Below are positions 1-19,921 of a stretch of DNA of 64,000 nucleotides, piece after piece. The stretch is from an uncultured Acidimicrobiia bacterium. GTDB lineage: Bacteria > Acidobacteriota > Terriglobia > Versatilivoradales > Versatilivoraceae. Each line of letters begins with the position of its first letter. The stretch's first letter is position 1. Made by a program: the position numbers and the translations under genes. Location of the stretch: NCBI GenBank assembly GCA_963786955.1, contig CAWBAT010000006.1, positions 544,001 through 608,000 on the forward strand, read 5' to 3'. Under the pieces are notes generated by a model. That model saw only the letters and a program-made list of their open reading frames with translations, made no database searches and had not been told where the DNA came from.

Positions 1-220
1 GTTCATCTGCTCGTATATGGCAAGAAGCCTGAAAACATTTCAGAAGGGCGAGTCAATTTATTTGCAGCAATGGTTTTATTAGACTCCCAAGACGCAAATA
101 ATGCGTTGAAACCTCCACCGGGTCCCCTTTTTCATTCATTGGTTATTGTGCGAAGTGGGAGGATTTCTTTCATCGATGAGATTGCGAATTCTACCCGCTC
201 CCGAAAAGAGTTTGAGTTAT

Positions 221-332
221 TCCCCTCCGGCGGAGGGGTGTAGGGGTGGGTCGCCTTTTCTGATCCGTGGACTTGCTCAGACTAAGACACCCCCCCGCAA
301 CCTGCGCCTGCTGCCCCCTTCAAAGCGGGCCT
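221..332. repeat. GC-rich palindromic intergenic repeat (tcccctccggcggagggg...ggggtgggtc type)
   Basis: Hairpin cccctcc-ggc-ggagggg at 222-238 followed by a purine tract; related purine/pyrimidine hairpins occur at 340-356, 384-420 and 3938-3976. Confidence 0.6.
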
Positions 333-356
333 TTTTCAATTCCCCTCCGCCGGTGG

Positions 357-509
357 AAAGCTGTGAAGTAATTCAATTTTGGTTCCCCTCCTTGGATAAG
401 GAGGGGGCTAGGGGGTGGTCGTAAGTGTTGCTGGATTAGCCCCCTGTAGTCCCCCTTAACCAAGGGGGACACTTGCAGAGAAACATCGAACCAATTCATT
501 CACACCTCA
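357..509. mobile_element. MITE-like element with TIRs (aaagctgtgaagtaatt ... aattcattcacacctca) carrying cccctccttggataaggagggg hairpins
   Basis: Imperfect terminal inverted repeats; a diverged reverse-complement copy lies at 18328-18480. Confidence 0.6.
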
Positions 510-679
510 GGGATGCAATTAGAAATTCGTTTTTGTGCAAGGGAATGGACGCAGATCCGCCTTTTGGTGATTGGAGGGAAAGCTTCTTTTTACTGCAGGG
601 GCTTTATCAAAGCCCCTGCCATATCCGGCTTGTCATACTTTTTTCACGCATTCCTTCGACAACGGGGCGCTTAGATCTC

Positions 680-792
680 TTTGTGATATCTTTAAGAAAG
701 ATACTTTACTGGCTCACTTTTTGTGTGCTAATTTGCTCTCATTATTTTTCCAGAAAAATCATGCCTGCCTCATTTGTGATTCACTGAGTTCG
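680..792 (+). promoter_or_regulatory. Duplicated upstream element, copy 1
   Basis: Colinear with 4451-4561; shares ctttactggctcactttt, tttccagaa-aatcat, ctgcct and ctgagttcg; sits ~90 bp before the gene at 884. Confidence 0.65.
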
Positions 793-883
793 CGACTCCA
801 GGCCAGGTGACTCTTACTTTCGATTGACTGAACGTGGTCTTCCCTCGGGAAGCGGATTGTGCCCAATAAGAAGGAGATGGAAC

Positions 884-3782
884 GTGCCGGATATTGTATT
901 CACAAAGTCTGACATCCCATTTTGGGCGGCCGGGGACGGCGTACTGCGCCTTCACGCAACTATCCCTGATCTGACAAAGCAGCTTGTGCCGTCCAATAAA
1001 GATCTGTTTAGCCTGGATTTCAACTTTGGAGGAACCCAACTGTTTTCCATTGGTGCTTTCGATACCATGAAGCTGGGCATTAAGGCTGGCACGGATGTGA
1101 GCATCATCCCTTTGTGGCCATCAACATCTGCAGACCGCCTCAAGATAATTGATAACTACGGCCTCACAGGCTACTTCGCTCCCAACGTTCACGGTGATCG
1201 CCTGCTTCTCGTCTTAACAGTCGGTGCTAATGCTAATGTAAATCTAAGTACACGTTTTCAATACTCGATTTTAACTGCCAGTGCCTCGCTGGAGGCGGGG
1301 GCAGATGCAAGCTATGCATTGATCCGTTCCTATCCATCCACTACACCGGCAGTTAATCTGCTTACTGATTTTTTCAGGGCTTTTCGCCTGCCTGCAAATG
1401 TGACAGCGCCTCTCGACCAAGATGAGGTAATCGTCTTCGAATACGGTGGCTACCTCAACTTTAATGCGGGTCTTGCCATGGGCTATCGAATCAACGGCGC
1501 ACCTTCATTTGAAATCGGCCAACTGCAGCTTGCCGAAAGATATGCCTTCAGTGTGATGGGCTCGCTTAGACTCGGAGCCAGCGTTGCCGGACGGTTCAGA
1601 ATTGAAACACGAAACGGGTCGGGGGATGGCTGGGTACGGGTGATTGTTCGCAAGAGCCGTGCAGATGCAATCCGGGTGGCTGCACATGTATCGGCTTCAG
1701 TTAAATTCCAAAAGGAAGGGCTGCCAGAATCTGCCGACGATTTCCTCGGCGCGGTGATTGGGCTGAATGCAAAAAACTGGCTCAACATGTTCGCCCAGAT
1801 TCGTAAACTCACGGACTTCAACAACCTTGAGGGCTATTTGGACAATCTGGCCAAGTCATTCATCGAGGAATATACGGGGAAAACATTTCAGGCATTGGAA
1901 GACAAGACCCAATTGGATGAAGTGATTAATAAAATCGGCAGAGTGGTAGACGAATACAACAACCTCGGCGACCATGCTGTGGCGCTTTTTGACCGGTACT
2001 TACAACGTGGTGACGAAAGCAGTCGACAGCAAGCTAGACCAAGCACTTCGTACCATCAAGAATGCCGCTTCTTGGGACAACCTGAAGGGACGAATTGACG
2101 ATACCCTCTGGGATGTCGTCCAGCAATTGACAGATGGTGATCCACTCGGGTGGATGCTGGGCCATATCAATATCAACGGTCAAGAGATGAATTCGCTGGA
2201 CGAGCTCAAGAGTCGTGCCGACAAGGCCCTCGACCTCGTAAGAAATCTGGCGCATAAGGAGATAAAGGATCTCATTGCGCTGGCAAAATCAAAGTTTCCC
2301 TTGGACCATTTCATCCAAAAACTGGGGCATATCGACTGGCTTCAGCTAAAGAATATGACCGATCTGCGACTCACCGGCTTCGTTGAACGCCTGATTGGAC
2401 AATCCATTCAGAAACTCAGTAACTCAGAGTTAGGCGACGCGGTACGGAAATTTCATCAGGTGCTCGATTTAATCGACCAGTTCAAAAATACCTTCTACGA
2501 CAAACTCAAAGACACGTTCAATCAATCGTTTCAATTCCAGTTACATGCGGAGTATAGCCGGGCTAGTGAAAGAGATGCTCTCATCGACTTCGAGCTCGAT
2601 CTCACCACTGCGAAAGGCAAAGAACTGATGAAGCGTGCTGGTCACGGGGACTTTGCGGATGTGCTCGCGGGCTACGACACTGGCGTCGTCAAGCTCAAAC
2701 AGGGTATTTTGACGCACAAAGTCACGAGACAGAGTCAATTCGCGGTCAATATTGTGGGCTGGCACATGAACTGGCATTATCAAGGTCTCGACCGCTTGAT
2801 TATTGAAGCCGAGCAACGCATCCAAGCCGAGGCCGGCGGCCAGTTGACCATTAACACGAAGATGGACCTACAGAAGGAACGCGAACGGAAACGAAACGGA
2901 GAGCGTGTATATACCAACTTTCTCCTCCGATTCATGGGAGAATCGCGGGGCAAGCTCGAGTTTGACAAGGATAATCAGGCCTACCTGATCGATGTGATCA
3001 CACGAATGGGAGCCCGTTATAACCTTGTCTTTCAGGACCCAAACACAACAGCTCAGGAGCTATACCAGTACCTCAGCTTCGCCGATGACTTCGGCCTAGC
3101 CACTTCAGACGAGGCGGTTGAGGCCGCTCTCAAGCCCCTTCTACCGACTGACGCACAGGGCAATTTCGGAGAAGTCTCTATCTTTTACGATGTCCGCTTC
3201 ACCGAGGAGGGTCTGCGGTCGCTCTTCACTTCACCCTTCACTCAAGACGATGAGAGAAATCTTCGCCGCGTAATGCGTTTAATCGTGTTGGCTAACTACC
3301 TCAATGAAGGACCATTTATGGCTAGGCGCGGTTGGTGCTATTGGACACCAGGCATCCAGTCCATTTGGCAGACAGAGGGTGCAAACTTCACGAATCATTC
3401 CAATTTAGAATTCAAGCCAATTGCACCGTCTCCGCTCAGGAATCTAACGGCTCCGCTGAGCGTCACGCTCGATCGAGCTGGGCTCCAGCAGCTGGACACG
3501 CTTTACAGGATTGAGGAAAGCATGGTGAAAGGCGTGCGTAATCTCTCGAATCTCTTACAATCACCAGGTAAGTTGAACCCCCACGATCTGGAAAAAGCGC
3601 TCGGAGATTTCGGCAAGGCACTGACAATATATGATAATTTTGACGAAGGAGAGAATTCGATCTTCGGCATACTGGACAAGCTTATTCATCGAGATGCCGG
3701 TGACAAACCATACCGGAACTCCAGCCTCACTCTCACCTCAAGAGTGAACAATCAGAAGGTCACGAAGATGCTGATTGCTTAG
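884..3782 (+). CDS. Large hypothetical protein (~965 aa), split by one frameshift near 2000
   Basis: AAGGAG at 871-876 precedes GTG 884. ORFs 824..2098 and 1974..3782 join (…LFDRY/YNVVTKAV…) if one T at ~2000 is removed. No motif recognised. Confidence 0.75.
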
Positions 3783-3864
3783 ACCTGACCTAGCCTGAGT
3801 GCTTAACTCCATCAGCTCGCAGCAATCACCGTAGCCGGGCACGTTCCCACTTGGTGGACTTAAT

Positions 3865-3976
3865 CTCCCTCTCCCCAACGCGGGAGAGGGCGGTCCGTCT
3901 TTCGGCGGACCGGGTGAGGGAATTTCAATCTTCATAGCTCCCCTCCTGTGTTTAAGGAGGGGATACAGGGGTGGTA
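3865..3976. repeat. Two adjacent palindromic intergenic repeats (ccctctccc..gggagaggg..gggtgaggg and cccctcct..aggagggg..ggggtggt)
   Basis: Hairpins visible directly; same families recur at 384-420, 9544-9583 and 47679-47723. Confidence 0.6.
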
Positions 3977-4111
3977 AGTTTTGCCTTTGGGAGGCAGGCA
4001 TCCTACCGGCTTATTATTACTAACACCCCCTAAAACCGATTCACACAATTCAATCCCTGGTCTTATTCCATCCCTCAGCAACTCCATCCATCCCACCAGA
4101 AAAAATAGCGA

Positions 4112-4138
4112 TGAAATGTTTCGGCAGGAAATGTCATA
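4112..4138 (+). promoter_or_regulatory. Putative ECF-sigma promoter TGAAAT-N17-CATA
   Basis: Same motif and spacing at 10617-10643 and 12674-12700, all intergenic or gene-proximal in an ECF-encoding island. Confidence 0.55.
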
Positions 4139-4274
4139 CATCAATGTAATGGGTAAGCACCTAGGCAAATGACTATTGGATTTGACCCCGGTGTTCTATC
4201 CGTGCCATCCCATTAAACCGAGAGCCTTGAAAGCAATTCGGTTGCCGTAAACTGCACAAAATGAAGGAGGGAAT

Positions 4275-4466
4275 ATGCCCACTTGGCCAATAGTACTCAT
4301 AATTTTCACTGCCGAAACCCTCTTCCAGGTCTTGTTTTTTCAATGGAATCTTCTTCATTCAGTAAGTCGGCCCGAGGTTGTACGTCTTAGCTATGTACAC
4401 AATGTCAAGAAACCGGGCAGGATTGTCTCAAAAGCTGAGATCAAAAACTATTTGCGATGTCAATAA
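4275..4466 (+). CDS. Possible small protein (63 aa) with hydrophobic N-terminus
   Basis: Strong RBS AAGGAGG just upstream of ATG 4275 and downstream of the ECF-like promoter; no homology recognised. Confidence 0.35.
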   Translation: MPTWPIVLIIFTAETLFQVLFFQWNLLHSVSRPEVVRLSYVHNVKKPGRIVSKAEIKNYLRCQ

Positions 4467-4561
4467 AAAAGTTCTTTACTGGCTCACTTTTCATGTGATA
4501 GCTTACACACATAATATTTCCAGAATAATCATATCTGCCTTTCCCTTATTTGCTGAGTTCG
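4451..4561 (+). promoter_or_regulatory. Duplicated upstream element, copy 2
   Basis: Colinear with 680-792; lies upstream of the clostripain gene. Confidence 0.65.
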
Positions 4562-4844
4562 TGTTTTACGGCTAGGGTGCCCACACAACGATGAAATGAA
4601 TTCGCCCGACCAGCGGCGATTCCGCATTGCTCTAAGTGCACAACCTCAGCCTGCTTACAGGACCACTCTCTCAAGTGGAGAGCGAGCAATGAGGCACCTT
4701 TTCGGCTGACGAGGCATTAGCAAGGCTTTCCTCGCAAAGTACTTGGATTCGGTCACCATCACCTGTTTGGCTTTACTTTCAAAAAGTGCTCATTCATCAG
4801 AATGGGCATTATCTAACATCTATTGACATGAAGGAGTTAAAAAC

Positions 4845-6521
4845 ATGAGTAACGGCAAGAAAGAAAAAAAAGACTGGTTGGTCATGGTTTACTTGGCGGG
4901 TGGAAGGGACGTCAGTGATGAAGCTCTTGAAAGCCTGCTGCGGATGAAGCACGTTGGATCGACAAAGAACGTCGACGTTATCGCGCAGTTCGATTCAGGA
5001 AGCGAAGGCACATTTACTAAGCGATATGAGCTCAAACCTATCGAGAATGCCCTGGATACCAAAACCGTCTTGCTACAGGCCTGCTCAGAACTTCACGATT
5101 CTACCGATCCCTCCGACTACACACTGGCTACATTTTACTTTGAACGCTTGATGAATATTTTACCTGACGGACTGAGGAAGAACTTTCAGAGCAAGCATCA
5201 AGCAAAAGAAATGATCGAATTACTGAAGCATTATCCTTACGGGTTTAAGAATTTAATCCTTGACTTCATCTTGGATGCGGATGTAGTCGGTAACATCGGA
5301 GACACAAATGCCGGCGACCCGAACATTTTCGGGGAATTTGTTCAATGGGCAAAGGAGAACTATCCTTCTCATTACACCCTGGTCATTATTTGGGGCCACG
5401 GCAGCGGCCTTTCTGTTGCATGGGATTTTCCCGCTCCGCAATCCTCTGCTTCCCCGGAAGCTCTAACTATTAGAGATCTTTCAACTGCCCTTAGCAGGAT
5501 CAAAACCCACTACGACCCCCGTGAGAGACCCAAAATTGCAAAGGGCAAAAAGGAGAACGATACCAATGGGATGCCCATAGTTGATATTTTGGGATTCAAT
5601 TCGTGCTCGTTAGGAATGATCGAGGTTTACCGTCAGCTACAGAAGTTCGTGACTTACGGTGTGGCATCCGAAGGATTTACTCCCAAAACCAGTTGGCCTT
5701 ATGAAAAGATCCTGAAAGCACTTAACGATGAACCTGAAATGGTACCAGATGCTTTCGCCATGAAAATTGTCGACGAATACATCAACTTCTACGAAGAATC
5801 GGTGGAAGCGACTGAACGACGTCAATCAGCACTACGCAAAATTGGGATACGAGACTTGAATGCGGGTTTAGACTTGAATAAGAGGCCCGCTCTGTCCAAG
5901 GGACCTGGTTTGTCAAAGGGACCCGGCTTGTCCAAAGGACCTGGCTTGTCCAAGGGACCCGGCTTGTCCAAGGGACCTGGCTTGGGTCCAGAGGGGGAAC
6001 CAGAACTGAGAGGCATTGATCTTTCCGTGTGCAAATTAGTGGAAAGCATAAAAGTTGAAGAAAAAATGACAAAACTGGTGGAATTGCTGCTCAAAAAGCT
6101 GCAACCGAAATTGGATCACGGCGTCTTTGGCGCCATTCTGGCCGCACATGCTATCAGCCAATCGTATTTCAACAAGGACTTTACAGATTTATATGATTTT
6201 TGCCGAGTTCTGAAAAGTTTCGGTGTTAATCAGGATATTGAGAAAGCTTGTGAAGACGTCATGGGAGCAATAACCAAAATGCGCATAAAAAATAAGAAAA
6301 ATTATGTTGGCGATGATGTCCAGAATTCAAACGGGGTTTCAATCTATTTCCCCTGGGACGATTGGGAAAGAAAAGATGTGCTTAGCAAGTATAATGAGAA
6401 TAATCTAGAATTTCTTAAGAATACAAATTGGCATACTTTCCTCGAAACTTACCGAGATTTGGTGCACAAGCTCGAGGAAAAAAAAGACCCCTTCTTGCTC
6501 TCTCTTGCGCAACATCCCTAA
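4845..6521 (+). CDS. Clostripain-family (peptidase C11, clan CD) cysteine protease, no signal peptide
   Basis: WLVMVYLAG N-terminal strand, DTNAGDP, IIWGHGSG (His), ILGFNSCSLGMIEV (Cys), VASEG, DLYDF, SNGVSIYFP; RBS AAGGAG. Confidence 0.88.
   Translation: MSNGKKEKKDWLVMVYLAGGRDVSDEALESLLRMKHVGSTKNVDVIAQFDSGSEGTFTKRYELKPIENALDTKTVLLQACSELHDSTDPSDYTLATFYFERLMNILPDGLRKNFQSKHQAKEMIELLKHYPYGFKNLILDFILDADVVGNIGDTNAGDPNIFGEFVQWAKENYPSHYTLVIIWGHGSGLSVAWDFPAPQSSASPEALTIRDLSTALSRIKTHYDPRERPKIAKGKKENDTNGMPIVDILGFNSCSLGMIEVYRQLQKFVTYGVASEGFTPKTSWPYEKILKALNDEPEMVPDAFAMKIVDEYINFYEESVEATERRQSALRKIGIRDLNAGLDLNKRPALSKGPGLSKGPGLSKGPGLSKGPGLSKGPGLGPEGEPELRGIDLSVCKLVESIKVEEKMTKLVELLLKKLQPKLDHGVFGAILAAHAISQSYFNKDFTDLYDFCRVLKSFGVNQDIEKACEDVMGAITKMRIKNKKNYVGDDVQNSNGVSIYFPWDDWERKDVLSKYNENNLEFLKNTNWHTFLETYRDLVHKLEEKKDPFLLSLAQHP
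5892..5981 (+). repeat. Five in-frame 18-bp tandem repeats encoding LSKGPG
   Basis: ctgtccaagggacctggt / ttgtcaaagggacccggc / ttgtccaaaggacctggc / ttgtccaagggacccggc / ttgtccaagggacctggc. Confidence 0.95.
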
Positions 6522-6733
6522 AAGGGTAGAAACCCTTAACTAGGTTAATGGTTGAACTCGAATTGTCAGTTGGCTAACTCTCGTTGACAGTCATTTTGCT
6601 AAGGGCCGGTTGGAGAAGTGTGTTGCATCTGTCTTCAGCTGTAAATCGATGCCTTACTTTAAACGAATTGCAGGCAAGACGCCTACAACATAAACTAAAA
6701 AAGGATGATTTCTTCAAACAGCCTCCTATCCCT

Positions 6734-9700
6734 ATGGGACGCCCTCCATGGGTCAGTTGGAGCAAACAGTTGCCTAAACTTGAACAGAGGTACAGAAAAG
6801 CGCTGGGGTGGCTGGTCACATCTGCGGCCTATTTTTTTTTGTTGGTACCCGCCTCCGTCTTTTCATTCTCCCGAAGTGAAGCCTCATCACGCCCTGAACC
6901 GAACTTAGGACGTCATGTAGATTCTCCAATTGAAAAAGATCATCAAACTTCTCGGGCGTTATTCCTTGGAACAACGATAGAGAAGGTCCTGCTAGAAAAC
7001 GATAGCCAAAGCTATCCTTTGGAACTTTTGCAGGGAGTATTCTGTCGCACGGATATGTATTCTACCAATCACAATTTAATTGTATCCGTCGCTTGGCCTA
7101 ACCATCAAAAATCGATGGAATGGAACGTTCCGAGACGCGTTCTTACACCCGTTTCATGGATTGCCGATGATCCAGGAATCTACCTGTTGGAGGTTCGTCC
7201 CTCCGGGGTAGGACGAGCCTCCGGTGACTATCGCTTAGAAATAACGGGGTTCAGGAAAGCTTCCGAACAAGACCAAAAGCAAGTGATTGCGTCTCGAATG
7301 CTTTCTGAAGCGGAACAGCTCCGTCAACAGTGGAATAAAGAGTCTCTCCTAAACGCCATTCGCAAGTACGAAGCGGCATTTGGAGTCTGGCAAGCTATTG
7401 CAGACCAGCAGCTACAAGCTGCAACGCTTAGAAGCATCGGCGAAGTATGGGAAATCTTCTCCGAAGAAGAAAAGGCTCTCAATTGCTTTACCAGTGCCCA
7501 GAAATTGTACAAAGGCCTGAATGACAAAAAGGAGGAAATCGCTACTCTGAACACCATTGCTGGTTCATATATTTATAGAGGAGAAAATCAAAAGGCTCTC
7601 GATATTTCCAAGCTGACCTTGGATATGATGAGGACAGTCAGTGATAGCTTGGAAAATGCCCAGGCGTTTCACAACCTAGGTGCTGCTTACTATGGTATGA
7701 ATGACATGCGAAAAGCGAAGGAGGCTCTAAATGAGGCCTTGCGACTCCGCCAGGAAATGTCAGATCCTTCCGGGCAAGCCGAAACTATTTTATACTTGGG
7801 TTACATTCAACATGCTCTTAAGAATACCGTTGAGGCCGAGGAATATTATCAACAATCTCTCAGTATCTGGCGTGAATTAAGGAACCCGAGAGGAGAAGCT
7901 CTCGTACTAGTCGCGCTTGGACACCTTTCCAACATACTTGGAGACAGCCAAAAGGCCCTCGGCTTTTACAATCAGTCTATTGGAATTTTCCAATGTATTG
8001 GGGAAAAAACGGGTCAGGGCACTGCCCTTGTGGGGGTCGCATGGCTTTATACTGCTTTGGGCGAAAAAGAAAGGGGTCTTGTTTTTTATTTGCAGGCTCT
8101 GGATCTGATACGGCACGTAAAAGATGTGGCATTGGAAGGACAAACTCTTGACTTCATCAGTAGCATCTATGCGGATATGGGAGATTATAAGACCGCGTTG
8201 ACATATTCCCAGCAGTCTGTTCAAGTCAACCGGAAAATATCTTCAGCCTTGGGGGAATCCTATGCGCTGGCAGACATGGGCAAGATTTATGAATCTTTAG
8301 GGATGAAAACCGAAGCGATAAGAAATTATCGTCATGGCCTTGAGTTGTCCCAAAAGGGAGGAGATCGCCACTTGGAAGGACTTTTGCTCAACGCAATTGG
8401 TCACAACTTTCACGACTCGGGACAGATAACGAAGGCGCTGCCTTACTACCAGCAGGCTCTCAGATTACAGCAAGATTCTAAGGATGCGGTTCGCCAACCT
8501 TCCACACTTTACAACCTAGCTCGGGCGGAGCGTGATATTGGGAACCTTGAGCAGGCCATTCGCTATGCTGAACAGGCATTGGAAATCACCGAGTCTTTGC
8601 GAGGCAAAGTCGCAAGCCGCGATTTACGCTCCTCGTTTGTCGCCTCCGTACATCAACAATACGAATTAACCATTGATCTTCTCATGCAAATGCATCGGCT
8701 GCATCCGTCAGAGGGTTACGCAGCCAGGGCATTTGGTATCAGCGAACGAGCACGCGCCCGTTCGCTGCTGGAGAGCCTTGCTGAGACCGGCAGCGATATT
8801 CGAACTGCTGCCAGCCCCTGCCCTCCTGGAACGACGCGGGCAATTGCAAATTTATTGAACACCAAAGCGGAACAACAGATGCAATCCTCAGAAAAAAAGT
8901 CCAATGGGACCAAAGATGCAGCCCTTACTCTCGAGATTGACAAACTCACTACCCAATACCAACAAGTCCAAGGCCAGATCCGCTCTGAGAGTCCCCACTA
9001 TTCCAGCTCTGGCTCAATTGCAGCCTTTAAGCTTAAAGAAGTCCAGGAGCTAATCCTCGATGACGGCAGTCTCTCTTGCTGGAATTCGCTCTGGGAGACG
9101 ATCAGAGTTATCTATGGGCGGTAACAAAGACAGGGATGACTTGTCATCAATTGCCAAAGCGTACAGTAATCGATCAAACAGCTCGGCTTCTCTATGGCCT
9201 GCTCACTGCTCGCCATCCTACGCCAGATGAAACACCCAAACAGTATCAGGCCAGAGTCAAAGATTCTGATGTTCAATACTAGGACGCAGGCGGCTGCATT
9301 GAGCCAGCTGTTGTTGGGACCTGTGGCCGACCAATTAGGAAGCCGCAGATTACTCATCGTTGCTGAAGGTGCTTTGCAATATGTGCCGTTTGGAGCGTTG
9401 CCGTGTCCGAAGGAACAAGGAACAGGGAGCATGGAGCAAGGGGGAACGGGCCCAGAGGACCAAGGGACAAGCGGTAGAATAAAGGGTCAAGATTCAAGGG
9501 AGAAGGGTCAGGCCAAAGAACTGAAACTGCAGGGCGACAATTACCCCTCACCCCACCCCTCTCCTCCTGTTTGGGACGAGGGAGGAAGGCCTCTAGTTAT
9601 TGACCACGAAATTGTCAATCTGCCGTCGGCTTCGGCACTAGCTATGTTGCGCAAGGAGACTGTCAACCGCCAGCCAGCCAGCAGGTCAGTGGCCGTATTG

Positions 9701-10444
9701 GCTGATCCAGTCTTCGAAGCAGATGACCCACGGGTCTCGGGCCGCGGAGTGCCTAGGCAAAGTCCAAAGCCGACCATAGTGTCTCATCGCAAGTCTACGG
9801 CAGCAACTCTCAGTGATCTTCAACTTTCTCTGCGGGACGTCGGGATGCTCCAGGGTGGCTTGGGCATCCCTCGGCTACTTTCCACTCGCCAGGAAGCTGA
9901 AGGTATTCTGTCTGTAAGTCTCTCAGGGACTTGCCTGAAGGCAGTCGATTTCAAAGCCAGCCGTGAGACCGCCGTAAGTCTTGAATTAAGCCAATTCCGA
10001 ATCGTTCATTTCGCCACTCATGGCCTTTTGAACAACCAGCATCCGGAACTCTCCGGCCTGGTCTTATCGCTAGTAGACGAACAGGGGAAACCCCAAAACG
10101 GTTTCCTTCGACTGCATGATATTTACAATCTAAATCTACCAGCCGATCTGGTCGTGCTGAGCGCGTGCAACACGGGCCTGGGCAAGGATATTAAAGGGGA
10201 AGGGTTAGTCGGCATTGTCCGTGGCTTCATGTACGCCGGCGCAGCCCGGGTAGTCGCCAGTCTATGGAAGGTGGATGATGAAGCCACGGCGGAATTAATG
10301 AAAAGATTTTATCAGCAGATGTTTCAGGAACGCCTTTCGCCTGCCGCGGCTCTGCGAGTTGCTCAGGTCGAGTTATCGCAACAGAAAAAGTGGCGCTCGC
10401 CTTATTATTGGGCAGGTTTTGTGCTCCAAGGGGAATGGAAGTGA
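6734..10444 (+). CDS. TPR-repeat CHAT-domain (caspase-like, clan CD) protease; frameshifts at ~9070 and ~9280; start uncertain
   Basis: Hydrophobic N-terminal segment, about ten TPR-like repeats, SERARARSLLE, LEFALGDDQSYLWAVT, VAVLADPVF, IVHFATHG (His), LVVLSACNTG (Cys), SLWKVDD, SPYYWAGFVLQGEW. Confidence 0.92.
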
Positions 10445-10616
10445 TTGTAATGTGTCAGCTTGTTTCCTTTTTGAAAGTCACCACCCGCTCATCCCCCCAG
10501 TTCAACAACTTCTCGTACGCTTAAGAATTAGTCCAATCAATGAGAGTTAGCGCTGGTCGGTATTCCTGCTTGCTTCCCTTTACCCACCTCCTTTATCCAG
10601 TTTTCTTGAATACTTG

Positions 10617-10643
10617 TGAAATGTTTTGCTGCCGCGACTCATT
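10617..10643 (+). promoter_or_regulatory. Putative ECF-sigma promoter TGAAAT-N17-CATT upstream of the kinase
   Basis: Matches the motif at 4112 and 12674; ends ~70 bp before ATG 10712. Confidence 0.55.
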
Positions 10644-10711
10644 ACCAAATGAAGAAGGTAATACGCCGATAGCTGATCAGAAGCTATCGGATAAGATCAG
10701 AGGTAAGAGCC

Positions 10712-11851
10712 ATGGAATACGAGAGAATCTCTCATTACGAAATTATCCGGCCACTGGGAGCTGGTGGCATGGGCGCCGTTTTCCTGGCAGAAGATACCCA
10801 GCTCAATCGCCGCGTAGCCATTAAATTGCTGTCAAAAGATTTCACAAAAGATGAGAGAGCAAAAGACCGGCTCTTCTCAGAGGCACGAGCTGCAGCGCAG
10901 CTGGAACACCCCAACATCTGTTGCATTCATGAAGCCATTGAAGAAGAGCCGTCGTGCATCGTGATGGAATATGTAGAAGGCGAGACCCTCTCAGACAAAA
11001 TTAATGGGCATCCTTTGAAGATAAAAATGGCCTTAGATTTTGTTATTCAGCTGGCTGACGCGTTGGAAGAGGTGCACTCCTGCGGGATGATTCACCGGGA
11101 CATAAAGCCCAGCAACGTTATCGTCACTCCTCGCGGACGGGTTAAACTGCTCGATTTCGGTTTAGCCAAGACGGTTCGTAACATTAACGCGGACAGAGAG
11201 AAAACGGTTACTCAAAACTCCGTGACAAAGTTTGGCTCGATCGTGGGTACTGTGGCTTATATGTCTCCCGAGCAAGCAACAGGCCATCCCGTGGATTCAC
11301 GCAGCGACATCTTCTCCCTCGGCGCGCTACTTTATGAATGCCTTACGGGTAAACGCCCATTCTCCGGGACAACGACGATGGAAGAAGGGGCCAATGTGAT
11401 CTATGCCAATCCGGTGCCACCGTCGCATTTCAATCGAGCAGTGCCTTCTGAATTGGACCGGATAACTCTTAAGCTGCTGGCAAAAAAGTCTGAGTCACGC
11501 TACCAGTCAGCTGGCAAACTCATCCAGGACCTTCGCAAAGTCCATGATAGTTTGCCTGAGGAAGAATTTTGCCACGGTCCCAGTATCTGCGAAGAATCAG
11601 CGGATAAGATTACAAGAATCTCGACCATTTTGGGAAAAGGGTTAGCGGGCGCATGCTATTCCCAGACTACTTTTTCTCTCGCGCATGTAGTCGCGTGGGA
11701 CACGCTCTCAGTCTGCTTCTCTAGCAGAGCGTTCAAGGTGATATATGAGTGGTATCCTGCGGCTTCAGGAAGAACCGCGATGGCATTTCTCCATGGCCCG
11801 GATATGAGTTCCTATGCAGGAAATAGACTTCACAAGCTGAAGCTAATATGA
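10712..11851 (+). CDS. Hanks-type Ser/Thr protein kinase with short, nondescript C-terminus
   Basis: GAGGMG, VAIK, HRDIKPSN, DFG, YMSPEQ, SDIFSLG motifs. Confidence 0.93.
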   Translation: MEYERISHYEIIRPLGAGGMGAVFLAEDTQLNRRVAIKLLSKDFTKDERAKDRLFSEARAAAQLEHPNICCIHEAIEEEPSCIVMEYVEGETLSDKINGHPLKIKMALDFVIQLADALEEVHSCGMIHRDIKPSNVIVTPRGRVKLLDFGLAKTVRNINADREKTVTQNSVTKFGSIVGTVAYMSPEQATGHPVDSRSDIFSLGALLYECLTGKRPFSGTTTMEEGANVIYANPVPPSHFNRAVPSELDRITLKLLAKKSESRYQSAGKLIQDLRKVHDSLPEEEFCHGPSICEESADKITRISTILGKGLAGACYSQTTFSLAHVVAWDTLSVCFSSRAFKVIYEWYPAASGRTAMAFLHGPDMSSYAGNRLHKLKLI

Positions 11852-12109
11852 TCTAATTTGGTCATTATTTTTTCCGCTCAAATGTCTTCTTACTCTGGGA
11901 TTATCCTGCAGACATTTACTCAAGCTGATTCAAACATTGCTCCTCTTGCCCTAAAAAAGAGTGGGATCCGCGGCTTGGAAATTGTGCCGGACGCCGAACG
12001 CAGCGCGAAACACATACTCTTTTTCCGATCCCAAGAGCCAGCAACTAGCACTTTAATTTTTCGCGGGAGACCGAGCTAAATTTCAAAATCAAATAAGGGG
12101 TATTAAACT

Positions 12110-12676
12110 TTGAGTAGCACTCCCTTTACGAAGAAAGAGTTCACTCAAGAAGCCTTCGATCAGTTGCTCGCCTGGCTCAATTCGGACCGGGAACAGGCCG
12201 GAAAAAAATACGAAGAAATTCGCAAGCGCTTAATCACGATTTTCACGTGTCGAGGCTGTTTGATCCCGGAAGACTTGACTGACGAAACGATTGACCGTGT
12301 CGTCATGAAGATACCGGATCTTGCAGGAAGCTATGTTGGAGATCCAGCCCTCTATTTTTATGGCGTGGCAAATATGTCTTTCATGAATACATCCGAAGAA
12401 TTCCCACTCCGGTCCCACCGCCCGTCCTTCATCCCACAGTAGAAGTGGAGCAAGCAATACTCTTGTTTGGAACAGTGCGTGCAGCAGTTGAATTTTAAGA
12501 CTCGCAGTCTGATTCTCGACTACTATTCGGATGAGGGTGGGAAAATCGATCACAGGAAACAACTCGCCGGCAAACTCGGCATGGAACTTAATGCCTTGAG
12601 AATTCAAGCCTGCCGAATTCGGGCTGTTTTATTTCAATGTGTTCAGGAGTGTTTGAAAAGCCACGAGATAGCATGA
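12110..12676 (+). CDS. ECF-type RNA polymerase sigma factor; frameshift at ~12372
   Basis: FDQLLAWL..AGKKYEEIRKRL..PEDLTDETIDRV (region 2) joins CLEQCVQQL..LILDYY..LAGKLGMELNALRIQACRIRAVL (region 4 HTH). Confidence 0.8.
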
Positions 12677-12700
12677 AATAGAATGTGTTTTTTTCGCATA
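12674..12700 (+). promoter_or_regulatory. Putative ECF-sigma promoter TGAAAT-N17-CATA overlapping the sigma stop codon
   Basis: Third copy of the motif; the sigma gene's TGA is the first three bases of the -35 box. Confidence 0.55.
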
Positions 12701-12808
12701 TACAAGTGAAGGGAGTATACGGGGGCTGCGAGTACAAGTCAGGTGAATTCGAATCGGTTTCTTCAAGAATGATAAAAACCTTAGACGATTCCTTAAAGGG
12801 AATAACTA

Positions 12809-13762
12809 ATGGAAATCGATATGAACTTGGAAGAAGCAATAAGAGAATACTTGCTTGGGAAAACTTATCTCAAGGAGAACAGGAGAAACTTGAAGAGCAA
12901 TTGATGACTCAGGATGACGCTTCACTCAGTGCTTATTCATGAGGACGAGCTGATTGACGAGTATTTCGGGGGAGCCTGCCGGCGTCAAGAGAGAGAAGCC
13001 TTTGAAAGGCATTTTTTGACAGCCCCGGAGCGGCGTCAAAAGCTTGGGTTTGCACGTTCACTCACGAAGTACGTTGAAGCTTCCCGCCAACAAAAGAGCC
13101 CCCTTACTCAGCCCTCGTTCGTGAAAGCCTTAATGGCTTTGTTGCGCGTACAACAACCAGCCGTTCAGTACTCTTTCGCGGCGATAGCGCTGGTGTTGAC
13201 CGTTGGTATTTCCTGGCCAATTGTAGAAGTCCGAAGATTGCAGACTGAGGTTGGCGCAAATGCGGGACCACCAGACTACGTCTCTGATTGCGTTAATGGT
13301 CTAAGCCAACAAATAAGCGAAGCACAGAAGCGGAGCCAGGACCTGATGGAACAGTTAGGGCAACAACAGCAGAGCCGGTCCGCCTTGGAAGAGCAGCTGG
13401 CATCAATGCAGCGACCCGCCATTGTTTCGTTCCCTCTGACTCCCGGGCTGGTACGGGATTTCGGGTCAATGAAAAAGCTGATTATTCCTCCTGCAGCCAA
13501 GCTGGTGGAGCTAAGCCTCGCGGTTGACGGCGAGAATTACGATAATTATCGTGCGGCCCTACAGGGGGCCAGTGGCGAGGAGGTTCTCAGCCTGAACAGG
13601 TTGAGCATTCACGAGGAAAAATGGGATCGGCATTGATTGTGATGCCGATTCCCGTTGGACTTTTGGGTCCGGGAGATTACATTGTCAAATTAAGCGGCAC
13701 TGAAATCTGGTAACTCTTTCGAGGATATTGGCAAATACTATTTTCGTGTTTCAAAAAAGTAA
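12809..13762 (+). CDS. Single-pass membrane anti-sigma-like protein (several frameshifts)
   Basis: MEIDMNLEEAIREYLLG..EQEKLEEQL..EDELIDEY..FERHFLTAPERRQKLGFARSL, one TM (FAAIALVLTVGISW), coiled coil, C-terminal beta domain ending YFRVSKK*; directly after the ECF gene. Confidence 0.65.
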
Positions 13763-13946
13763 GAACTCTGTAGTAGGCATTTTCGGACTGCGCGCGGGAG
13801 CGTTGACCCCCTGCGCACGCTCAATGAACGCGCGGCGAAGCGCGCATTCCACCTTTAGACGGCCAAACCACCAAAAATACGTTGCCGGATTTATGAAGCG
13901 CAGGATTTAGCCTACAAGCTAATCCAATCAGAAATCCGCAATCCAA

Positions 13947-16380
13947 TCACCAATCCAAAATCAGACTGCTATCTTTTTCCCCCTCGTTGTCCCGACGAAT
14001 GAGATGGCGAAGCGACGAATTACTTCCCCCTCCTCTTTGAGGGGCAGGAGCTTGCCGCTGCTCAACTTGGCTTCCTCGATACCCGCCACTATCATAACTA
14101 CGAGGCGCGCGCTCAGTCACGATTGGTTTGCTCATTTGGAGCGGAGGTCGTTGAGGCTGATAGGTCGGCAAGTACTGCCGTGCCGGGGTTGGTGTATATT
14201 GACGAACCGGGGGTTGAGACGTCTCCGGTCTGGAATACCGATTCATTTGATTAGAACCCTGGCTCTGAGAGGTTGTTCCCGAAGCGGAAGGGAATCGATT
14301 CCAATTTCGGTTCTCGACTGGCGATTGGTAAAGTGTCCCACGCCCATTTCCTTGAACCGATTGGGTCGAAGGGGAGTTTGAGGGAGAATACACTCTAGTC
14401 GAAGATGGAAAGTTTGAGGGAACTGAAGCGGATGGTATCCGTTGTCCCTCCACATTGGACGGTCCATTGAATCGCCTCCAATCCGTTCGTGATGGGGAAG
14501 CGTCGGGAACCCTTGTGGCTGCTGTGTTCCGGTCCGCCCAGAACCATACGTCCCTCGAGATGGGGTCGGGGGACCGGCGGCACCTGAACCGGGGCCACGC
14601 TGTTGCGAATTTTCGGTCGACGTGCTCCTTGAATTCATCTGCCCATTTCCAAAGCGATTCCAACTCCCGGTGGACGCCGATTGAGCCGAAGAACTGCCCA
14701 TCGAGGAGTAGTTTCCAGACTACGGCTTGGAGCTTGTCGATTTTGGATTCCTTGCGTGACGGCCTCTCTCGTTGCGGTGCTACCAGCCGCAGACGATGCA
14801 GGAGCTATGACAGTGGAACGATTCGAATGCACTATATTCTGCCCGGTTGGAGATTGCGGGTTATACCGCTGCACCATTTGCCGGATCTCAGCCGCATGTT
14901 GATCAAAAGATTGAGGCGCCGCAGCCGGTTGGTTGCGAGAGAAAAACTTTTCCGAACTTGTCGACCGATTGGGCAACGAGGCTGGATTTACAGCCCGATT
15001 TACCGTCCTCAAGCTGTCGCGAGTTGGGACTGCTGGAACGGTTCCAGCCACCAGTTGTGCCTGCCGTAATGTTCTCGCATCCACGGCAGACCGATTGGGG
15101 TTCGCCATTCCTCCTTTTACAAATTCCTCCGTGTTCATTGAATTGACCGATCTCCGCACTTTCTCATTATCCAAAGCCGATTGAACATTTGAGTAGTACG
15201 GACGCGATGCCCGATCCGCCAGTGGAGGAACACCGGAAACGTTATTAATATTCGTGATGTTATGGATATTCGTCACGTTCGTAATGTTGACGGCATCATA
15301 ACCATGGCCGTGACGCGTGCCGTACCAAGGGTAGTAATGATCACACGGGCCGGTGGGTAACCATCCAATCGAGTTGTAGCCGTACCCAAAGCCAAAGCTC
15401 CAGTTTTGCCCTCCAAAACCAAATCCCAGGAACGAGACATAGGCAGGAGCCCAAACGGGATGATAGGAGGGATACACAGGGCCAGGCCACCAACGCCAGT
15501 TCCCACCATGAACGAACCATCGTCCATAGTGGTAAGGAGCCCATCCCCAAGGCTCGCTGGAAACCCAGGTCCAACCCCAATAAGGCTGCCAGTTCCAACT
15601 TCCAAGAGTGTAGGGGGACCAGGAACTATCCACATAATTTGGCGCCCACGTCGAGCCGTATCCGGGGAATTCGTCCCAGCTTCCGTAACGATCGAGATCA
15701 GACGCACCCGTATAATAGCGATTCGCATATTGCCAGCTTTGAGCGTCACTGATGGCATGATCGCGCTCTTGGTTCCAGCGATCCCAGTCGTCATTTCCGG
15801 GCGCCTTGGCAATTCGATACTGCGCGTTTTCCGTTCCTCGGACAATGATTTGACCGTTCTTGCCAATACGCGTGCTTCCTTCAGGCGTCTGGATTTCGGC
15901 CTTGCCTTTGCGACAAATGATTTCGGTTTCAGAATCCGAGTTCACCTGTACTCGGTAGATACCCTCTTCCAATGGACGAAGCGCGGCGTTGGGAGTGTCG
16001 ATCTCTACGTCGGCTTCATTGCCCTTAAACAGCGTGAAATTCAAACGTCCTTGGGCAACCTGGATTTGAATGCGATTGTTTGAGAGTGTGGCGATCCTGG
16101 CTTCAGTTCTTTGATCTAGGCGAATGATGTTCGAATGATCGAGTTGTATTTCAGCGCGAGAATTTGGGCCTGTAGAGATCTTGTCTCCCTGGACCAGCGG
16201 AGCATTTACCGTTGTGGCCATCCAGTCGCCGCTATCGCCCCGCATGGTGGAGACTTCCCCATTAATGAGACTCACACGTGCAACTCCGCTTTCCTGCTCG
16301 TCGCCTGCCAGCACCTTTGACACTGTGAAACAGCTGATCGATAAAACCAGCATTGCTATCCACAACATTCGCGTTTTCAT
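13947..16380 (-). CDS. Secreted FecR-like/DUF6600-type Trp-Gly-Tyr-Pro-rich protein with long disordered tail (frameshift ~14690)
   Basis: Signal peptide MKTRMLWIAMLVLSISC, VARVSLINGEVS, EIDTPN, DLDRYGSW, WTWVSSEPWGWAPYHYGRW; RBS GGGAGG. Confidence 0.8.
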
Positions 16381-16437
16381 GGTGCCCTCCCGCTGAAACG
16401 ATTTCACGATGTCCTGCCACTACTCACTAATAGGCTG

Positions 16438-16997: not shown

Positions 16998-18285
16998 GTG
17001 CTGAATCAAAAGCCAATGGAGTTAAGCTGGGTAGACCTGCTTTGGGTCGTGCTACTAGGAGTGTTGGCAGTACTGCCTCCTATCTTCGAGGTCCATAAAG
17101 ATCTCATCCTACTGGCCATTGGCGCCACCCAGCTTCTTGAGCAGCGGATTTTTGGCCAGATCCGACCGGCCAGAGCTAGGGTCTACAGTATATTGATCAA
17201 GATACTGCTAGCAACTTTGTTACTCGGACATACTGGCAGTATTCCGATTAATAGCAGTTACTACTTGATTTTCTACTTGCCGGTTGTTTCGGCAGCCATG
17301 ATTTATGATATCTGGAGAACGCTCTTTTGGACCTTTTTGTCCTCTGCAGCTTATTGTTCTTATCTCATCCCGGCTCTCGAAGATTATGAATTGACGGCCA
17401 GCGGTGCCACCGAGTTAGCAATCCGAATTCTCTTTTTCTTTCTAGCGGCCATCGTGGTCAATCGTTTTGTCGAAGAAACCCGCCGACAGTCCAAGCGTTA
17501 CCAGCTTCTGGCGGAAGCTCAGGCTGAAACCAACCGGCGTCTGGAGCAAGCTCAGGTTGAAATGAGGCGTTCCGAGCGCCTGGCTGCGCTCGGACAGCTC
17601 TCCGCGGGACTTGCTCATGAAATTAGAAACCCTCTTGGCGTCATCAAAGGTTCAGCGGAGATGCTGAGCCAAAAAATTGCGAAGTCGGATCCGTTAGTCT
17701 CGGAATTGGCCGGCTATATCTCAAGCGAAGTGAATCGACTGAATGCTCTGGTCAATCGCTTTTTGGACTTCGCGCGCCCGTCTGCAACCTGATTTTTCTC
17801 TTGAGAAGGTCCCTTCCCTGCTCGATCAGAGTCTCAAGGTAGCGCAAGAGCGTTGGCCGGAGTCAAAAGTTGAGCTGGAGAAAACACTATGCCACCGATT
17901 TGCCGAGCCTATCCCTGGATGCCGGGCTTTGTGAGCAAGTGTTCACGAATCTTTTTTTCAATGCCTATGAAGTCAATGCCCAACGGAGGAAAACTCAAAG
18001 TCAGCCGCTTCACGTGCGAATTTAGATGGTCAGGAAGCCGTTGTGATTGAGATCGAAGATACTGGCCCTGGAATTCCCCGTGAGATCCAGGATCAAATCT
18101 TCAACCCCTTTTTCACTACCAAAAAGGGAGGCGTGGGGCTGGGGTTGTCGATTGTATCGAAGATCATCGATAATCATAATGGTGAGATCAAGGTCCAATC
18201 TGAACCCGGGAAAGGGACTTGCTTTCGAATCTTGTTTCCGGTGGATACGCCACTTACCCAAGGAGCAACACCAGAAGAGCGTTAG
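16998..18285 (+). CDS. Membrane sensor histidine kinase, NtrB/PilS-like (frameshifts 17780-18050)
   Basis: Multiple TMs, ERLAALGQLSAGLAHEIRNPL H-box, DTGPGI, FFTTKKGGVGLGLSIV. Confidence 0.9.
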
Positions 18286-18327
18286 TGTTTTGTTTCATCA
18301 ATGCAATCAAGAATCTCAACCACCCGT

Positions 18328-18480
18328 GAAGGCGTGAAAGAATTGGTTGTGGTGTCACTCTGCGCTGTTCACACCTGTGTTAAGGCGGGACTAGGGCGGT
18401 TGGAAAATCAGCTGACGACCGCCCCTTGGAGTCCTTTTAACCAAGGAGGGGCACGCCAAAATTCATTTTTTCCCACCCTT
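18328..18480. mobile_element. Diverged inverted copy of the MITE-like element at 357-509
   Basis: gaaggcgtgaaagaattggtt…ttaagg…gacta…gacc..ccc…ccaaggagggg…caaaatt aligns with the reverse complement of 357-509. Confidence 0.55.
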
Positions 18481-18528
18481 TCAGAGGCGGAGGGAAATGG
18501 TTAATTAGGTAAAAGGGGAGAATCACCT

Positions 18529-19921
18529 ATGCCTGGCGTTTTGATAGTTGAAGATGAATCTAAGTTGTTACGCCTGCTTGAACTCAGTCTTACCGAAGAC
18601 GGATTTACGGTGTGTTCCGCAGCCCTCGGCCGAAGATGGGCTTTCACGCCTAAGCCATAACTCCGTAGACTTGGTGATCACTGACTTGAAGCTGCCAGGA
18701 ATGAACGGCTTGGAATTTCTGCAAGCCATCAAACGAGTGAACGCTACTCTCCCGGTCATTGTGATGACGGCATATGGAACGGTAGAGACCGCTGTAGAAG
18801 CCATGAAATCCGGCGCCAGCGATTATGTTTTAAAGCCCTTTTCTCTTGAAGAGATGAAACTCATTGTTCACAAGGAGTTGGACATTCATCGGCTTCGTGA
18901 AGAAAACCGCTCTCTGCGAGAGGCTCTTGGCCAACGCTATACTTTTCGTAACATCATCGCCATGAGCAGCCGGATGCAGGAAGTTTTAGCGACGGTAAGT
19001 CGGGTGGCGCCGTCCAACTCTACGGTTCTGCTCGGGGGAGAAAGCGGCGTCGGGAAAGACTTGATTGCTCGCGCTATCCACGAACATTCGCGTCGTGCTT
19101 CAGGACCTTTTGTTAAGATCAATTGTACGGCCATCCCTGAAAATCTGCTGGAAAGCGAGCTCTTTGGATATGAGAAAGGCGCATTCACGGGCGCCAACAC
19201 CTCAAAACCAGGCAAATTTGAATTGGCGGACAAAGGAACGATTTTTCTAGATGAAATCGGAGATGTCCCGCCCGCAATCCAAGTGAAGCTGCTCGGCGTG
19301 CTTCAAGAACGGCAGTTTGATCGTTTGGGAGGAACAAAGACACTTAAGGTCGATGTCCGCCTGATCGCAGCCACCAACCGGGATCTGCGCGCTGCGCTGG
19401 AGCAAGGGACATTCCGCGAAGACCTTTACTATCGTCTGAACGTCGTCCCGATCAATATTCCGCCGCTCCGGGAGCGTAAAGAGGACATTCCTTATTTGGT
19501 GGATCATTTTATCAAACGCTTTGCCAAAGAATCCGGCAAGCCGATCAAAGGGATTACGCCTGCCGGGCTGAGTGTGCTCACTTCTTTCCATTGGCCGGGA
19601 AACGTTCGTGAACTGGAGAATATCATTGAGCGCACCATCGCTCTGTCGACTGGAGAAATCATCGACGCTGAGGATATCACCCTGGATATCTCACGCCCAA
19701 AAGCCACGACGGGAACAGTCCCATTCCTGCCCGAAGGAATCTCTCTCGAACAATGGGAAGACGAAATGATTAAGGAAGCTTTGCGCCGTACCAATGGCAA
19801 CAAGAGCCAGGCGGCTCGATTACTCGGGCTCTCCAGAAATGCATTACGCTACCGTCTTTCCAAGATGGGGTTATCCGATGAGGACAACCGGAATAAGCCG
19901 CCAATTTTGAGTTTGAACTAA
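18529..19921 (+). CDS. sigma54-dependent response regulator (REC-AAA+-Fis HTH); frameshift near 18620
   Basis: MPGVLIVEDE, DLKLPGMNG, GESGVGK, GAFTGA, FLDEIG, WPGNVRELEN, NKSQAARLLGLSR. Confidence 0.95.

Follow-up and report, generated by a model that had tools for sequence, protein, structure and literature searches.

What are two proteases, a protein kinase and a sigma factor with its putative inhibitor doing side by side in an acidobacterial genome? The locus that raises this question lies in a 64,000-nucleotide (nt) stretch of DNA, hereafter the window, which corresponds to positions 544001-608000 of contig C6 in a 5.65-Mb, nine-contig genome that is 93% complete. An island in the window encodes, in order, a protein of ~965 amino acids (aa), a peptidase C11 of the clostripain family, a TPR-CHAT protease, a Hanks-type kinase, a sigma factor of the extracytoplasmic function (ECF) type and a single-pass anti-sigma-like protein. 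A first-pass annotation of the window had described six co-oriented genes. Open reading frame (ORF) listing, Pfam scans, tblastn and three-frame reading confirmed that all six are present on the + strand close to where they had been placed, but only the C11 frame is uninterrupted. By comparing ~100 related loci, we separated the core of the system from its additions. From sequence comparison, we put at roughly 0.55 the probability that the island encodes a split envelope sensor of the DdvA/DdvS type, one of a large family of modules for envelope signalling in Acidobacteriota.

The sigma factor, the anti-sigma protein and the TPR-CHAT protease

A profile search for the anti-sigma family detected members in 78 of the 401 sampled genomes of the phylum, often with at least five copies per genome. 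The ten best profile matches were C11 loci described below, and the next 34 full-length matches were taken as the anti-sigma-anchored set. An ECF gene was adjacent in 33 of these 34 loci, a TPR-CHAT gene was present within the locus in 24 (8/14 and 16/20), and C11 was present in none (0/34). On these counts the core consists of the sigma factor, the anti-sigma protein and TPR-CHAT, to which only some members of the family add C11. The gene order is kept across the phylum and, judged by these comparisons, the sigma/anti-sigma/TPR-CHAT module is a real conserved system in Acidobacteriota. Specific to the window are the kinase gene between TPR-CHAT and ECF, the adjoining ~965-aa gene and a duplicated upstream element.

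The divergent ECF-type sigma factor gene (12110-12676, + strand) is made up of two small frames together and has several shifts, with the frame broken near 12372-12442. Using tblastn, the intact sigma protein of a same-genus genome, G002, covered 12095-12673 at 75% identity. No Pfam sigma model matched the window protein alone. In contrast, a profile of 16 family members matched solved ECF sigma factors over nearly its full length (RpoE in 2q1z, E 1e-5; also SigL, SigK, SigE and SigW), and Sigma70_r4_2 was matched by 10 of the 16. The NCBIfam models TIGR02937 and TIGR02989 matched single sequences below their cut-offs. The earlier naming of this gene as an ECF sigma factor is thus upheld by the family and not by the window protein on its own: its product is an ECF sigma factor with predicted sigma-2 and sigma-4 regions, recognisable only as a family profile. 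The family retains the acidic sigma-2.2 residues, with the consensus PE.LADET. In a tree of the ECF proteins, 27 of 50 inner branches were open, and the tree did not resolve whether C11-linked or fused modules form clades.

The anti-sigma-like gene (12809-13762, + strand; tblastn 12809-13759) contains several indels. The window sequence matched the family profile over positions 1-291 with four TGA codons and one TAA codon in frame, and a three-frame reading recovered the C-terminal motif of the family, which ends YYFRVSKK-stop. Family members comprise an N-terminal helical domain resembling zf-HC2, a transmembrane (TM) segment, a coiled coil and a C-terminal immunoglobulin (Ig)-like beta sandwich, in that order. 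PF13490 (zf-HC2) was matched by 27 of 46 members (best E 2.1e-7), and the G002 orthologue scored 25.8 bits against a cut-off of 22.2. The AlphaFold2 (AF2) model of a relative's protein (mean pLDDT 83.8) had a helical bundle (residues 1-92) followed by a disordered linker, a TM helix spanning 122-150 and, at 156-265, a beta sandwich that resembles generic Ig-like, CopC or azurin folds. The N-terminal domain, as far as profiles and models can tell, resembles class-I (zf-HC2) anti-sigma domains, and the Ig-like domain is predicted to lie outside the cytoplasm. These results support the original description of a single-TM anti-sigma-like protein. A comparison of the anti-sigma profile with the Protein Data Bank (PDB) returned TM and coiled-coil noise only. 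When the anti-sigma ectodomain was compared by hhalign with the beta domain at the N-terminus of TPR-CHAT, the probability was 3.3%.

The TPR-CHAT gene (6584-10444, + strand) has its likely start at the ATG at 6734 and two compensating frameshifts near 9065-9250. Its TPR array was found at 6584-9124 (Pfam TPR_12, E 7e-49) and its CHAT domain at 9194-10444 (E 5e-65), and the single-frame tblastn alignment to the intact TPR-CHAT proteins of G001, a same-genus genome, and of locus L049 spanned 6944-10441. His276 and Cys325 of the CHAT domain are intact in the window, in agreement with the first-pass annotation, and are kept in 12/12 sequences. The window protein begins with a hydrophobic signal or anchor, which here, as elsewhere in the family, is followed by a beta domain of ~100 aa, the TPR array and then CHAT. 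A crude hydropathy test detected an N-terminal hydrophobic segment in 28 of 40 unfused TPR-CHAT proteins, and several of those failing the test have a signal-like segment behind an over-long predicted start. Since the TPR-CHAT proteins carry signal-peptide-like N-termini and often a C-terminal membrane anchor, they are predicted, from hydropathy and inspection by eye, to be extracytoplasmic. The C-terminal TM anchor was observed in 8 of 12 C11-linked TPR-CHAT proteins (L044, L046, L049, L055, L057, L059, L060 and L062) versus 1 of 28 others, the genomes being related and the counts not independent; the window protein has no such anchor. Another locus (L128, G174:C55) has three full-length TPR-CHAT-like genes (1249-1500 aa) around a single ECF/anti-sigma pair, and part of a fourth such gene where the locus ends.

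Fused forms join the anti-sigma protein and the protease in a single chain. All six long open frames that matched only the anti-sigma N-terminus (L105-L110, from six genomes) encode an anti-sigma domain, a TM segment, TPR and CHAT in proteins of 1170-1222 aa, the TM segment lying at approximately residues 104-146 and CHAT at the C-terminus (Pfam E 1e-58 to 1e-63). Each of the fused proteins directly follows an ECF gene of the same family. The fusion of the anti-sigma N-terminus and TM segment to TPR-CHAT places TPR-CHAT within the sensor in those relatives. According to the accessible part of PMC11506125, DdvS/DdvA of Myxococcus xanthus consists of an ECF sigma factor and a transmembrane anti-sigma protein fused to a periplasmic TPR-CHAT, and, by domain order, L105-L110 have this DdvA architecture. 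One fused protein matched a chain of 991 aa in PDB 8rot/8rw5, entered as "CHAT domain-containing protein", marginally (E 3.5e-4) and over the CHAT domain only; the 991-aa length of the 8rot chain agrees with the DdvA numbering in the same portion of PMC11506125. That portion reports DdvA-like proteins from Myxococcota and one Comamonas only, and L105-L110 extend the architecture to Acidobacteriota.

The window resembles DdvA/DdvS in having an ECF gene next to a single-pass anti-sigma protein with a small cytoplasmic N-terminal domain and an extracytoplasmic TPR-CHAT (a predicted topology in the window) with a conserved His/Cys dyad. It would also share the proposed logic of CHAT cleavage followed by RseP, which for DdvA is still a model in the text available from PMC11506125, and the fused architecture is present in same-phylum relatives (6/6 examined). 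In contrast to DdvA, the anti-sigma protein and TPR-CHAT of the window are encoded by two genes, at 12809-13762 and 6584-10444. Its anti-sigma protein has an Ig-like ectodomain of its own and no CHCC zinc site, a cytoplasmic C11 and a kinase are added, and no CBASS (cyclic-oligonucleotide-based anti-phage signalling system) or CRISPR genes were noticed near the island in PADLOC and Pfam scans.

The C11 protease, the kinase and the ~965-aa protein

The C11 gene (4845-6521, + strand) is an intact frame of 558 aa that matched PF03415 at E 5.2e-24, with 85.9 bits against a cut-off of 25.8. As first annotated, His185 and Cys254 are intact in the window, and they are invariant in 19/19 sequences. 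Clostripain equivalog status was rejected for this protein (TIGR02806, 23.9 bits against a cut-off of 550). The clostripain family is known mainly from secreted enzymes, and a cytoplasmic member would be unusual. The window protein starts at a conserved W-x-V-M-x-Y strand, with an AAGGAG ribosome-binding site before the ATG, and among the 18 C11 proteins whose N-terminal domain is complete, 17 start at that domain without a signal peptide, the exception being the G001 protein. Since C11 is without a signal peptide and TPR-CHAT has one, the two proteases are predicted to lie on opposite sides of the membrane, which makes a direct CHAT-to-C11 cascade unlikely. Between the catalytic and C-terminal domains of C11, five tandem 18-nt repeats (5875-5984) encode GPGLSK five times, and the lysines of these repeats might mark a candidate self-processing linker. 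A search of the contigs of named genomes with the C11 protein found no relative.

Homologues of C11 were present in 30 of the 401 sampled genomes, out of which 20 loci were fetched as the C11-anchored set. C11, TPR-CHAT and ECF were side by side in 12 of the 20, all 12 having the anti-sigma gene as well, and in 13/13 pairs the C11 gene was immediately upstream of TPR-CHAT and in the same orientation, with a gap of -52 to +209 nt. The other eight loci had C11 by itself, C11 together with a CHAT protein of unrelated type, or C11 next to a membrane kinase that is transcribed divergently. The last arrangement was observed in L053, L056 and L058, which are without ECF or anti-sigma genes; L056 and L058 are also without CHAT. 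The kinases of this arrangement have TPR repeats and measure 892-940 aa in L056 and L058. C11 and the divergent membrane kinase may represent a separate recurrent pair.

The Hanks-type Ser/Thr kinase gene (10712-11851 and beyond, its tail reaching ~12000; + strand) sits between TPR-CHAT and ECF in the window and in G002. Its kinase domain is intact (Pkinase, E 5.7e-49), confirming the first assignment, and its C-terminal tail is garbled by indels. Within this bacterial family, the anti-sigma protein was found in 10 of 31 genomes and 14 loci were fetched. Kinase orthologues with 58-60% identity were detected in three other genera of the family: at L145 and at L158 they directly follow the anti-sigma gene, and at L156 the distance is 4.8 kb. 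L158 additionally has C11 and TPR-CHAT, and L152 has two further kinases at 43-47% identity. The kinases of this family have a TM segment after the kinase domain and are either short (459-471 aa), as in the window, or extended by extracytoplasmic TPR repeats (863-888 aa). That the linkage is retained though the position shifts argues for a functional tie in this family. Outside the family, a kinase was immediately adjacent in one of the 34 anti-sigma-anchored loci (L123, with two kinases directly upstream of ECF). The expectation that the genes of the island co-occur in other genomes therefore holds for the linked TPR-CHAT, ECF and anti-sigma genes, with C11 as a recurrent fourth member, and for the kinase within this family but hardly beyond it.

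The ~965-aa gene (884-3782, + strand) has one frameshift near 1965-1999; by tblastn, residues 1-370 of its homologue P0003 aligned to 884-1999 and residues 363-974 to 1965-3776 in another frame. Its protein had been called an orphan, a status that is contradicted by its representative clusters, of which 286 match at E<=1e-3 and 132 still do so at E<=1e-30; the majority are of 930-1000 aa. It had no Pfam, NCBIfam or PADLOC match, and an Atlas search returned Acidobacteriota clusters without a family name only. Of 42 loci of this protein family, 40 are in Acidobacteriota lineages, the closest being Blastocatellia or Pyrinomonadaceae. The AF2 model (pLDDT 79) revealed two sheets of 20-30-residue strands, forming long beta hairpins, separated by helical regions, and Foldseek found no match to it at E<=0.001. 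An outer-membrane beta barrel was considered for this protein and not accepted: VIA-align gave a Z of 10-12 but a root-mean-square deviation of 4.6-14.6 Å. The family consensus has no hydrophobic N-terminal segment. For the pattern search, an alignment of 53 rows was too divergent and one of 12 rows was used.

The ~965-aa gene adjoins the module in the three genomes of this genus. Among the 42 loci, the module was beside a family member in one, a same-genus relative, and the protein family was found in 0/14 of the module loci from this bacterial family. No ORF cluster was common to more than 7 of the 42 loci, antisense shadows of the gene aside. The ~965-aa protein is therefore not counted as part of the conserved system. 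The sole hint of a broader tie between its family and these proteases is locus L054 (G414:C63), where a 1069-aa ORF weakly matching the N-terminal half of the ~965-aa protein (E 8e-6) is next to overlapping C11 and CHAT frames.

An upstream element of ~124 nt (direct repeat D2, 78% identity between copies) occurs at 680-803 (+ strand), ahead of the ~965-aa gene, and again at 4451-4572 (+ strand), ~270 nt ahead of the C11 start codon. It carries a sigma-70-like TTTACT-N16/17-GCTAAT/GATAAT. Searches with blastn and nhmmer found only these two copies genome-wide and, among 158 fetched loci (2.17 Mb), the element was detected in this genome and G002 only, with two copies each. The shared element suggests possible co-regulation of the ~965-aa gene with the C11 operon. 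Promoter-like motifs common to the island, as first proposed, are therefore present ahead of these two genes but not ahead of all six. Short dispersed repeats in intergenic DNA flank the ~965-aa gene at 140-470 and 3860-3990, with up to ~25 and ~9 copies genome-wide, and public short-read contigs have loose ends at 3861-3971.

The proposed switch and its alternatives

In the split-sensor reading, the exported TPR-CHAT would be both the sensor and the site-1 protease. On a signal, it would cut the ectodomain or linker of the anti-sigma protein in trans, and an RseP-type site-2 protease would then cut within the membrane and free the sigma factor. The genome has an RseP-like M50 peptidase at C6:635296. 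In the E. coli sigma-E pathway, RseA is removed by a periplasmic site-1 cut (DegS) and then by an intramembrane site-2 cut (RseP), and ClpXP has a cytoplasmic clean-up role. The window is similar to this pathway in its single-pass anti-sigma protein and in the RseP-like peptidase of the genome. It is different in that a TPR-CHAT of caspase fold, and not a PDZ serine protease, would make the site-1 cut. By analogy, C11 might take the ClpXP-like clean-up role. More speculatively, the cytoplasmic C11 would either clear the anti-sigma remnant from the sigma factor or be an output or effector of the switch, the membrane Hanks kinase would provide a second input, and the ~965-aa protein would be a co-regulated output.

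If so, DdvA-like logic would be common in another phylum, given the 78/401 sampled genomes with the family. The family has fused as well as split members, and in the latter the protease and its presumed substrate are separate proteins, so that trans-cleavage is directly testable with catalytic mutants. The cytoplasmic clostripain-family protease and the membrane kinase point to multi-layered control of an ECF sigma factor. Full-text literature searches yielded no description of a TPR-CHAT/anti-sigma/ECF module in split form, of C11 together with CHAT and a sigma factor, or of modules of this kind in Acidobacteria. The first-pass annotation had likewise named no characterised locus of this combination, which is correct for the combination itself, but its relative DdvA/DdvS has been characterised, as the accessible text of PMC11506125 describes. 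CHAT-domain proteins have been linked in silico to another ECF group: ECF54 of Actinobacteria has CHAT, subtilase and carboxypeptidase genes in its context, read as proteolytic control in the available part of PMC8999054. There ECF54 differs from the window in being described as without an anti-sigma protein, in belonging to another phylum and in that no C11 is mentioned. CHAT is not mentioned in the main text of the ECF re-classification, whose group descriptions sit in supplements outside the search (PMC7826278).

Several observations weigh against the split-sensor reading. The N-terminal domain of the anti-sigma protein has no conserved Cys and lacks the zinc-binding Cys/His set of DdvA, its invariant columns being E, E, L and D; the fused proteins, too, have no zinc site in their first ~100 residues. 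In 10 of the 34 anti-sigma-anchored loci no TPR-CHAT is nearby, suggesting that the sigma/anti-sigma pair can work without this protease. When the regions upstream of 28 ECF genes were searched for bipartite k-mers, the best motif was in 4/28, equal to shuffles, and the 124-nt element is sigma-70-like and not ECF-like. Gene neighbours of ECF sigma factors may also be targets rather than regulators, a caution given in the accessible part of PMC7826278. Finally, alignment to intact homologues shows broken frames in no fewer than five of the six island genes, and if the breaks are genuine the window copy is dead; the short-read support for their being errors, at ~2x depth and with one contig from a relative, is suggestive.

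Some of these points favour the main rival, an ordinary envelope-stress sigma/anti-sigma switch that has both proteases (TPR-CHAT and C11) and, within this genus, the ~965-aa protein as products under its control, not as its regulators. C11 and TPR-CHAT are co-directional with ECF and could form one autoregulated operon with it, and the C11 operon and the ~965-aa gene have an upstream element in common. The loci without TPR-CHAT and the caution about neighbours as targets, as far as that source (PMC7826278) was accessible, fit this rival as well. However, all six fusions place TPR-CHAT in the sensor, as in DdvA, an argument that counts for TPR-CHAT and not for C11. Also against this rival, the shared element resembles sigma-70 promoters and no ECF-type motif was found upstream of the 28 ECF genes. 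We consider this rival rather unlikely, although it is the strongest of the alternatives.

A more far-reaching proposal is a trans-envelope proteolytic switch with three inputs, which would amount to a conflict or defence system, so far undescribed, that is triggered at the envelope and common throughout Acidobacteriota. TPR-CHAT would make the site-1 cut in the Ig-domain anti-sigma protein, a translationally coupled C11 would complete sigma release or execute the response, the kinase would gate the switch, and in this genus the beta-rich ~965-aa protein would be the output via the duplicated 124-nt element. We regard this extension of the split-sensor reading as unlikely.

Slightly less probable still is a kinase-controlled sigma factor of the ECF43 type, in which the Hanks kinase would phosphorylate the sigma factor and the proteases would be secondary. 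The ECF43 pairs EcfP/PknT and EcfK/PknS are kinase-activated and have neither the acidic sigma-2.2 motif nor an anti-sigma protein, in the part of PMC8999054 that was available. The window shares with them a Hanks kinase gene beside ECF, lying between TPR-CHAT and ECF as in G002. The orthologues that adjoin the ECF/anti-sigma pair at L145 and at L158 are in keeping with such control, as are the one 4.8 kb off at L156 and the additional kinases of L152 (two) and L123 (two). In contrast to ECF43, the ECF family of the window keeps the acidic residues, and an anti-sigma protein is present, whereas kinase-regulated groups are typically without one according to the accessible text of PMC7826278. 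The near absence of an adjacent kinase outside this bacterial family (1/34) also speaks against this model.

Craspase consists of Cas7-11 with Csx29 (a TPR-CHAT), Csx30, Csx31 and RpoE, and is cytoplasmic and RNA-guided. A CRISPR-free cascade of this kind, with TPR-CHAT cleaving a cytoplasmic inhibitor, C11 or the ~965-aa protein to free the sigma factor, was the proposal of the first-pass annotation. The likeness lies in a TPR-CHAT whose gene is linked to that of an ECF-type sigma factor, as in type III-E CRISPR loci in the part of PMC10028731 that was accessible. In both cases a sigma-binding inhibitor (putative in the window) belongs to the same genetic set, and both proteases of the window have intact dyads. 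The likeness ends at the membrane. TPR-CHAT proteins have signal peptides and C11 proteins do not, so that a one-compartment CHAT-to-C11 step is unlikely, and the inhibitor is a predicted membrane protein with an ectodomain. The ~965-aa protein is beside the module in 1/42 loci only. General Pfam scans of the island ORFs and 28 other window ORFs detected no Cas7-11/gRAMP or other Cas/CRISPR gene, and a repeat scan of 1-14500 found no CRISPR-like array. We consider such a cytoplasmic cascade very improbable.

Reading frames, assembly and surroundings

The frame breaks are probably single-base assembly errors, since the break sites differ between this genome and G002. G002 has the entire island in synteny and is a heavily frame-broken genome in its own right, with many island genes affected. 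In G001, C11 is intact and the TPR-CHAT frame is open over 1092 aa. Public short-read contigs had single-base indels relative to the window in the kinase tail (five, 11631-11800) and at four places in 12686-12751, upstream of the anti-sigma gene, and showed 0 differences over other parts of the island. The contig of a relative had one extra base behind 12372, the site of the sigma frame break. The best short-read run contained 0.17 of the sampled words. That the island is a decayed or chance cluster of pseudogenes or accidental neighbours, as the many broken frames in the window and in G002 could be taken to indicate, is the least probable alternative in view of the differing break sites, the intact C11 and TPR-CHAT frames of G001, the short-read indels, the split genes elsewhere in the window and the gene order kept across the phylum.

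Beyond the island, too, there are genes broken up into neighbouring frames, namely those for a DUF2229/BcrAD protein and for Tex, at 49044-52492 and 59030-61691. Such splits fit with indel errors throughout the assembly.

PADLOC matched only the kinase, via generic kinase models, and returned no match for C11, CHAT, ECF, the anti-sigma protein or the large protein. Rfam gave no match at gathering score over 1-14500. The 28 further window ORFs are housekeeping genes according to Pfam scans. A gene for a FecR and DUF6600 protein (14635-16407, - strand) lies just downstream of the island on the opposite strand, and beyond it are a histidine-kinase fragment and then a sigma-54 activator (16998-19921, + strand).

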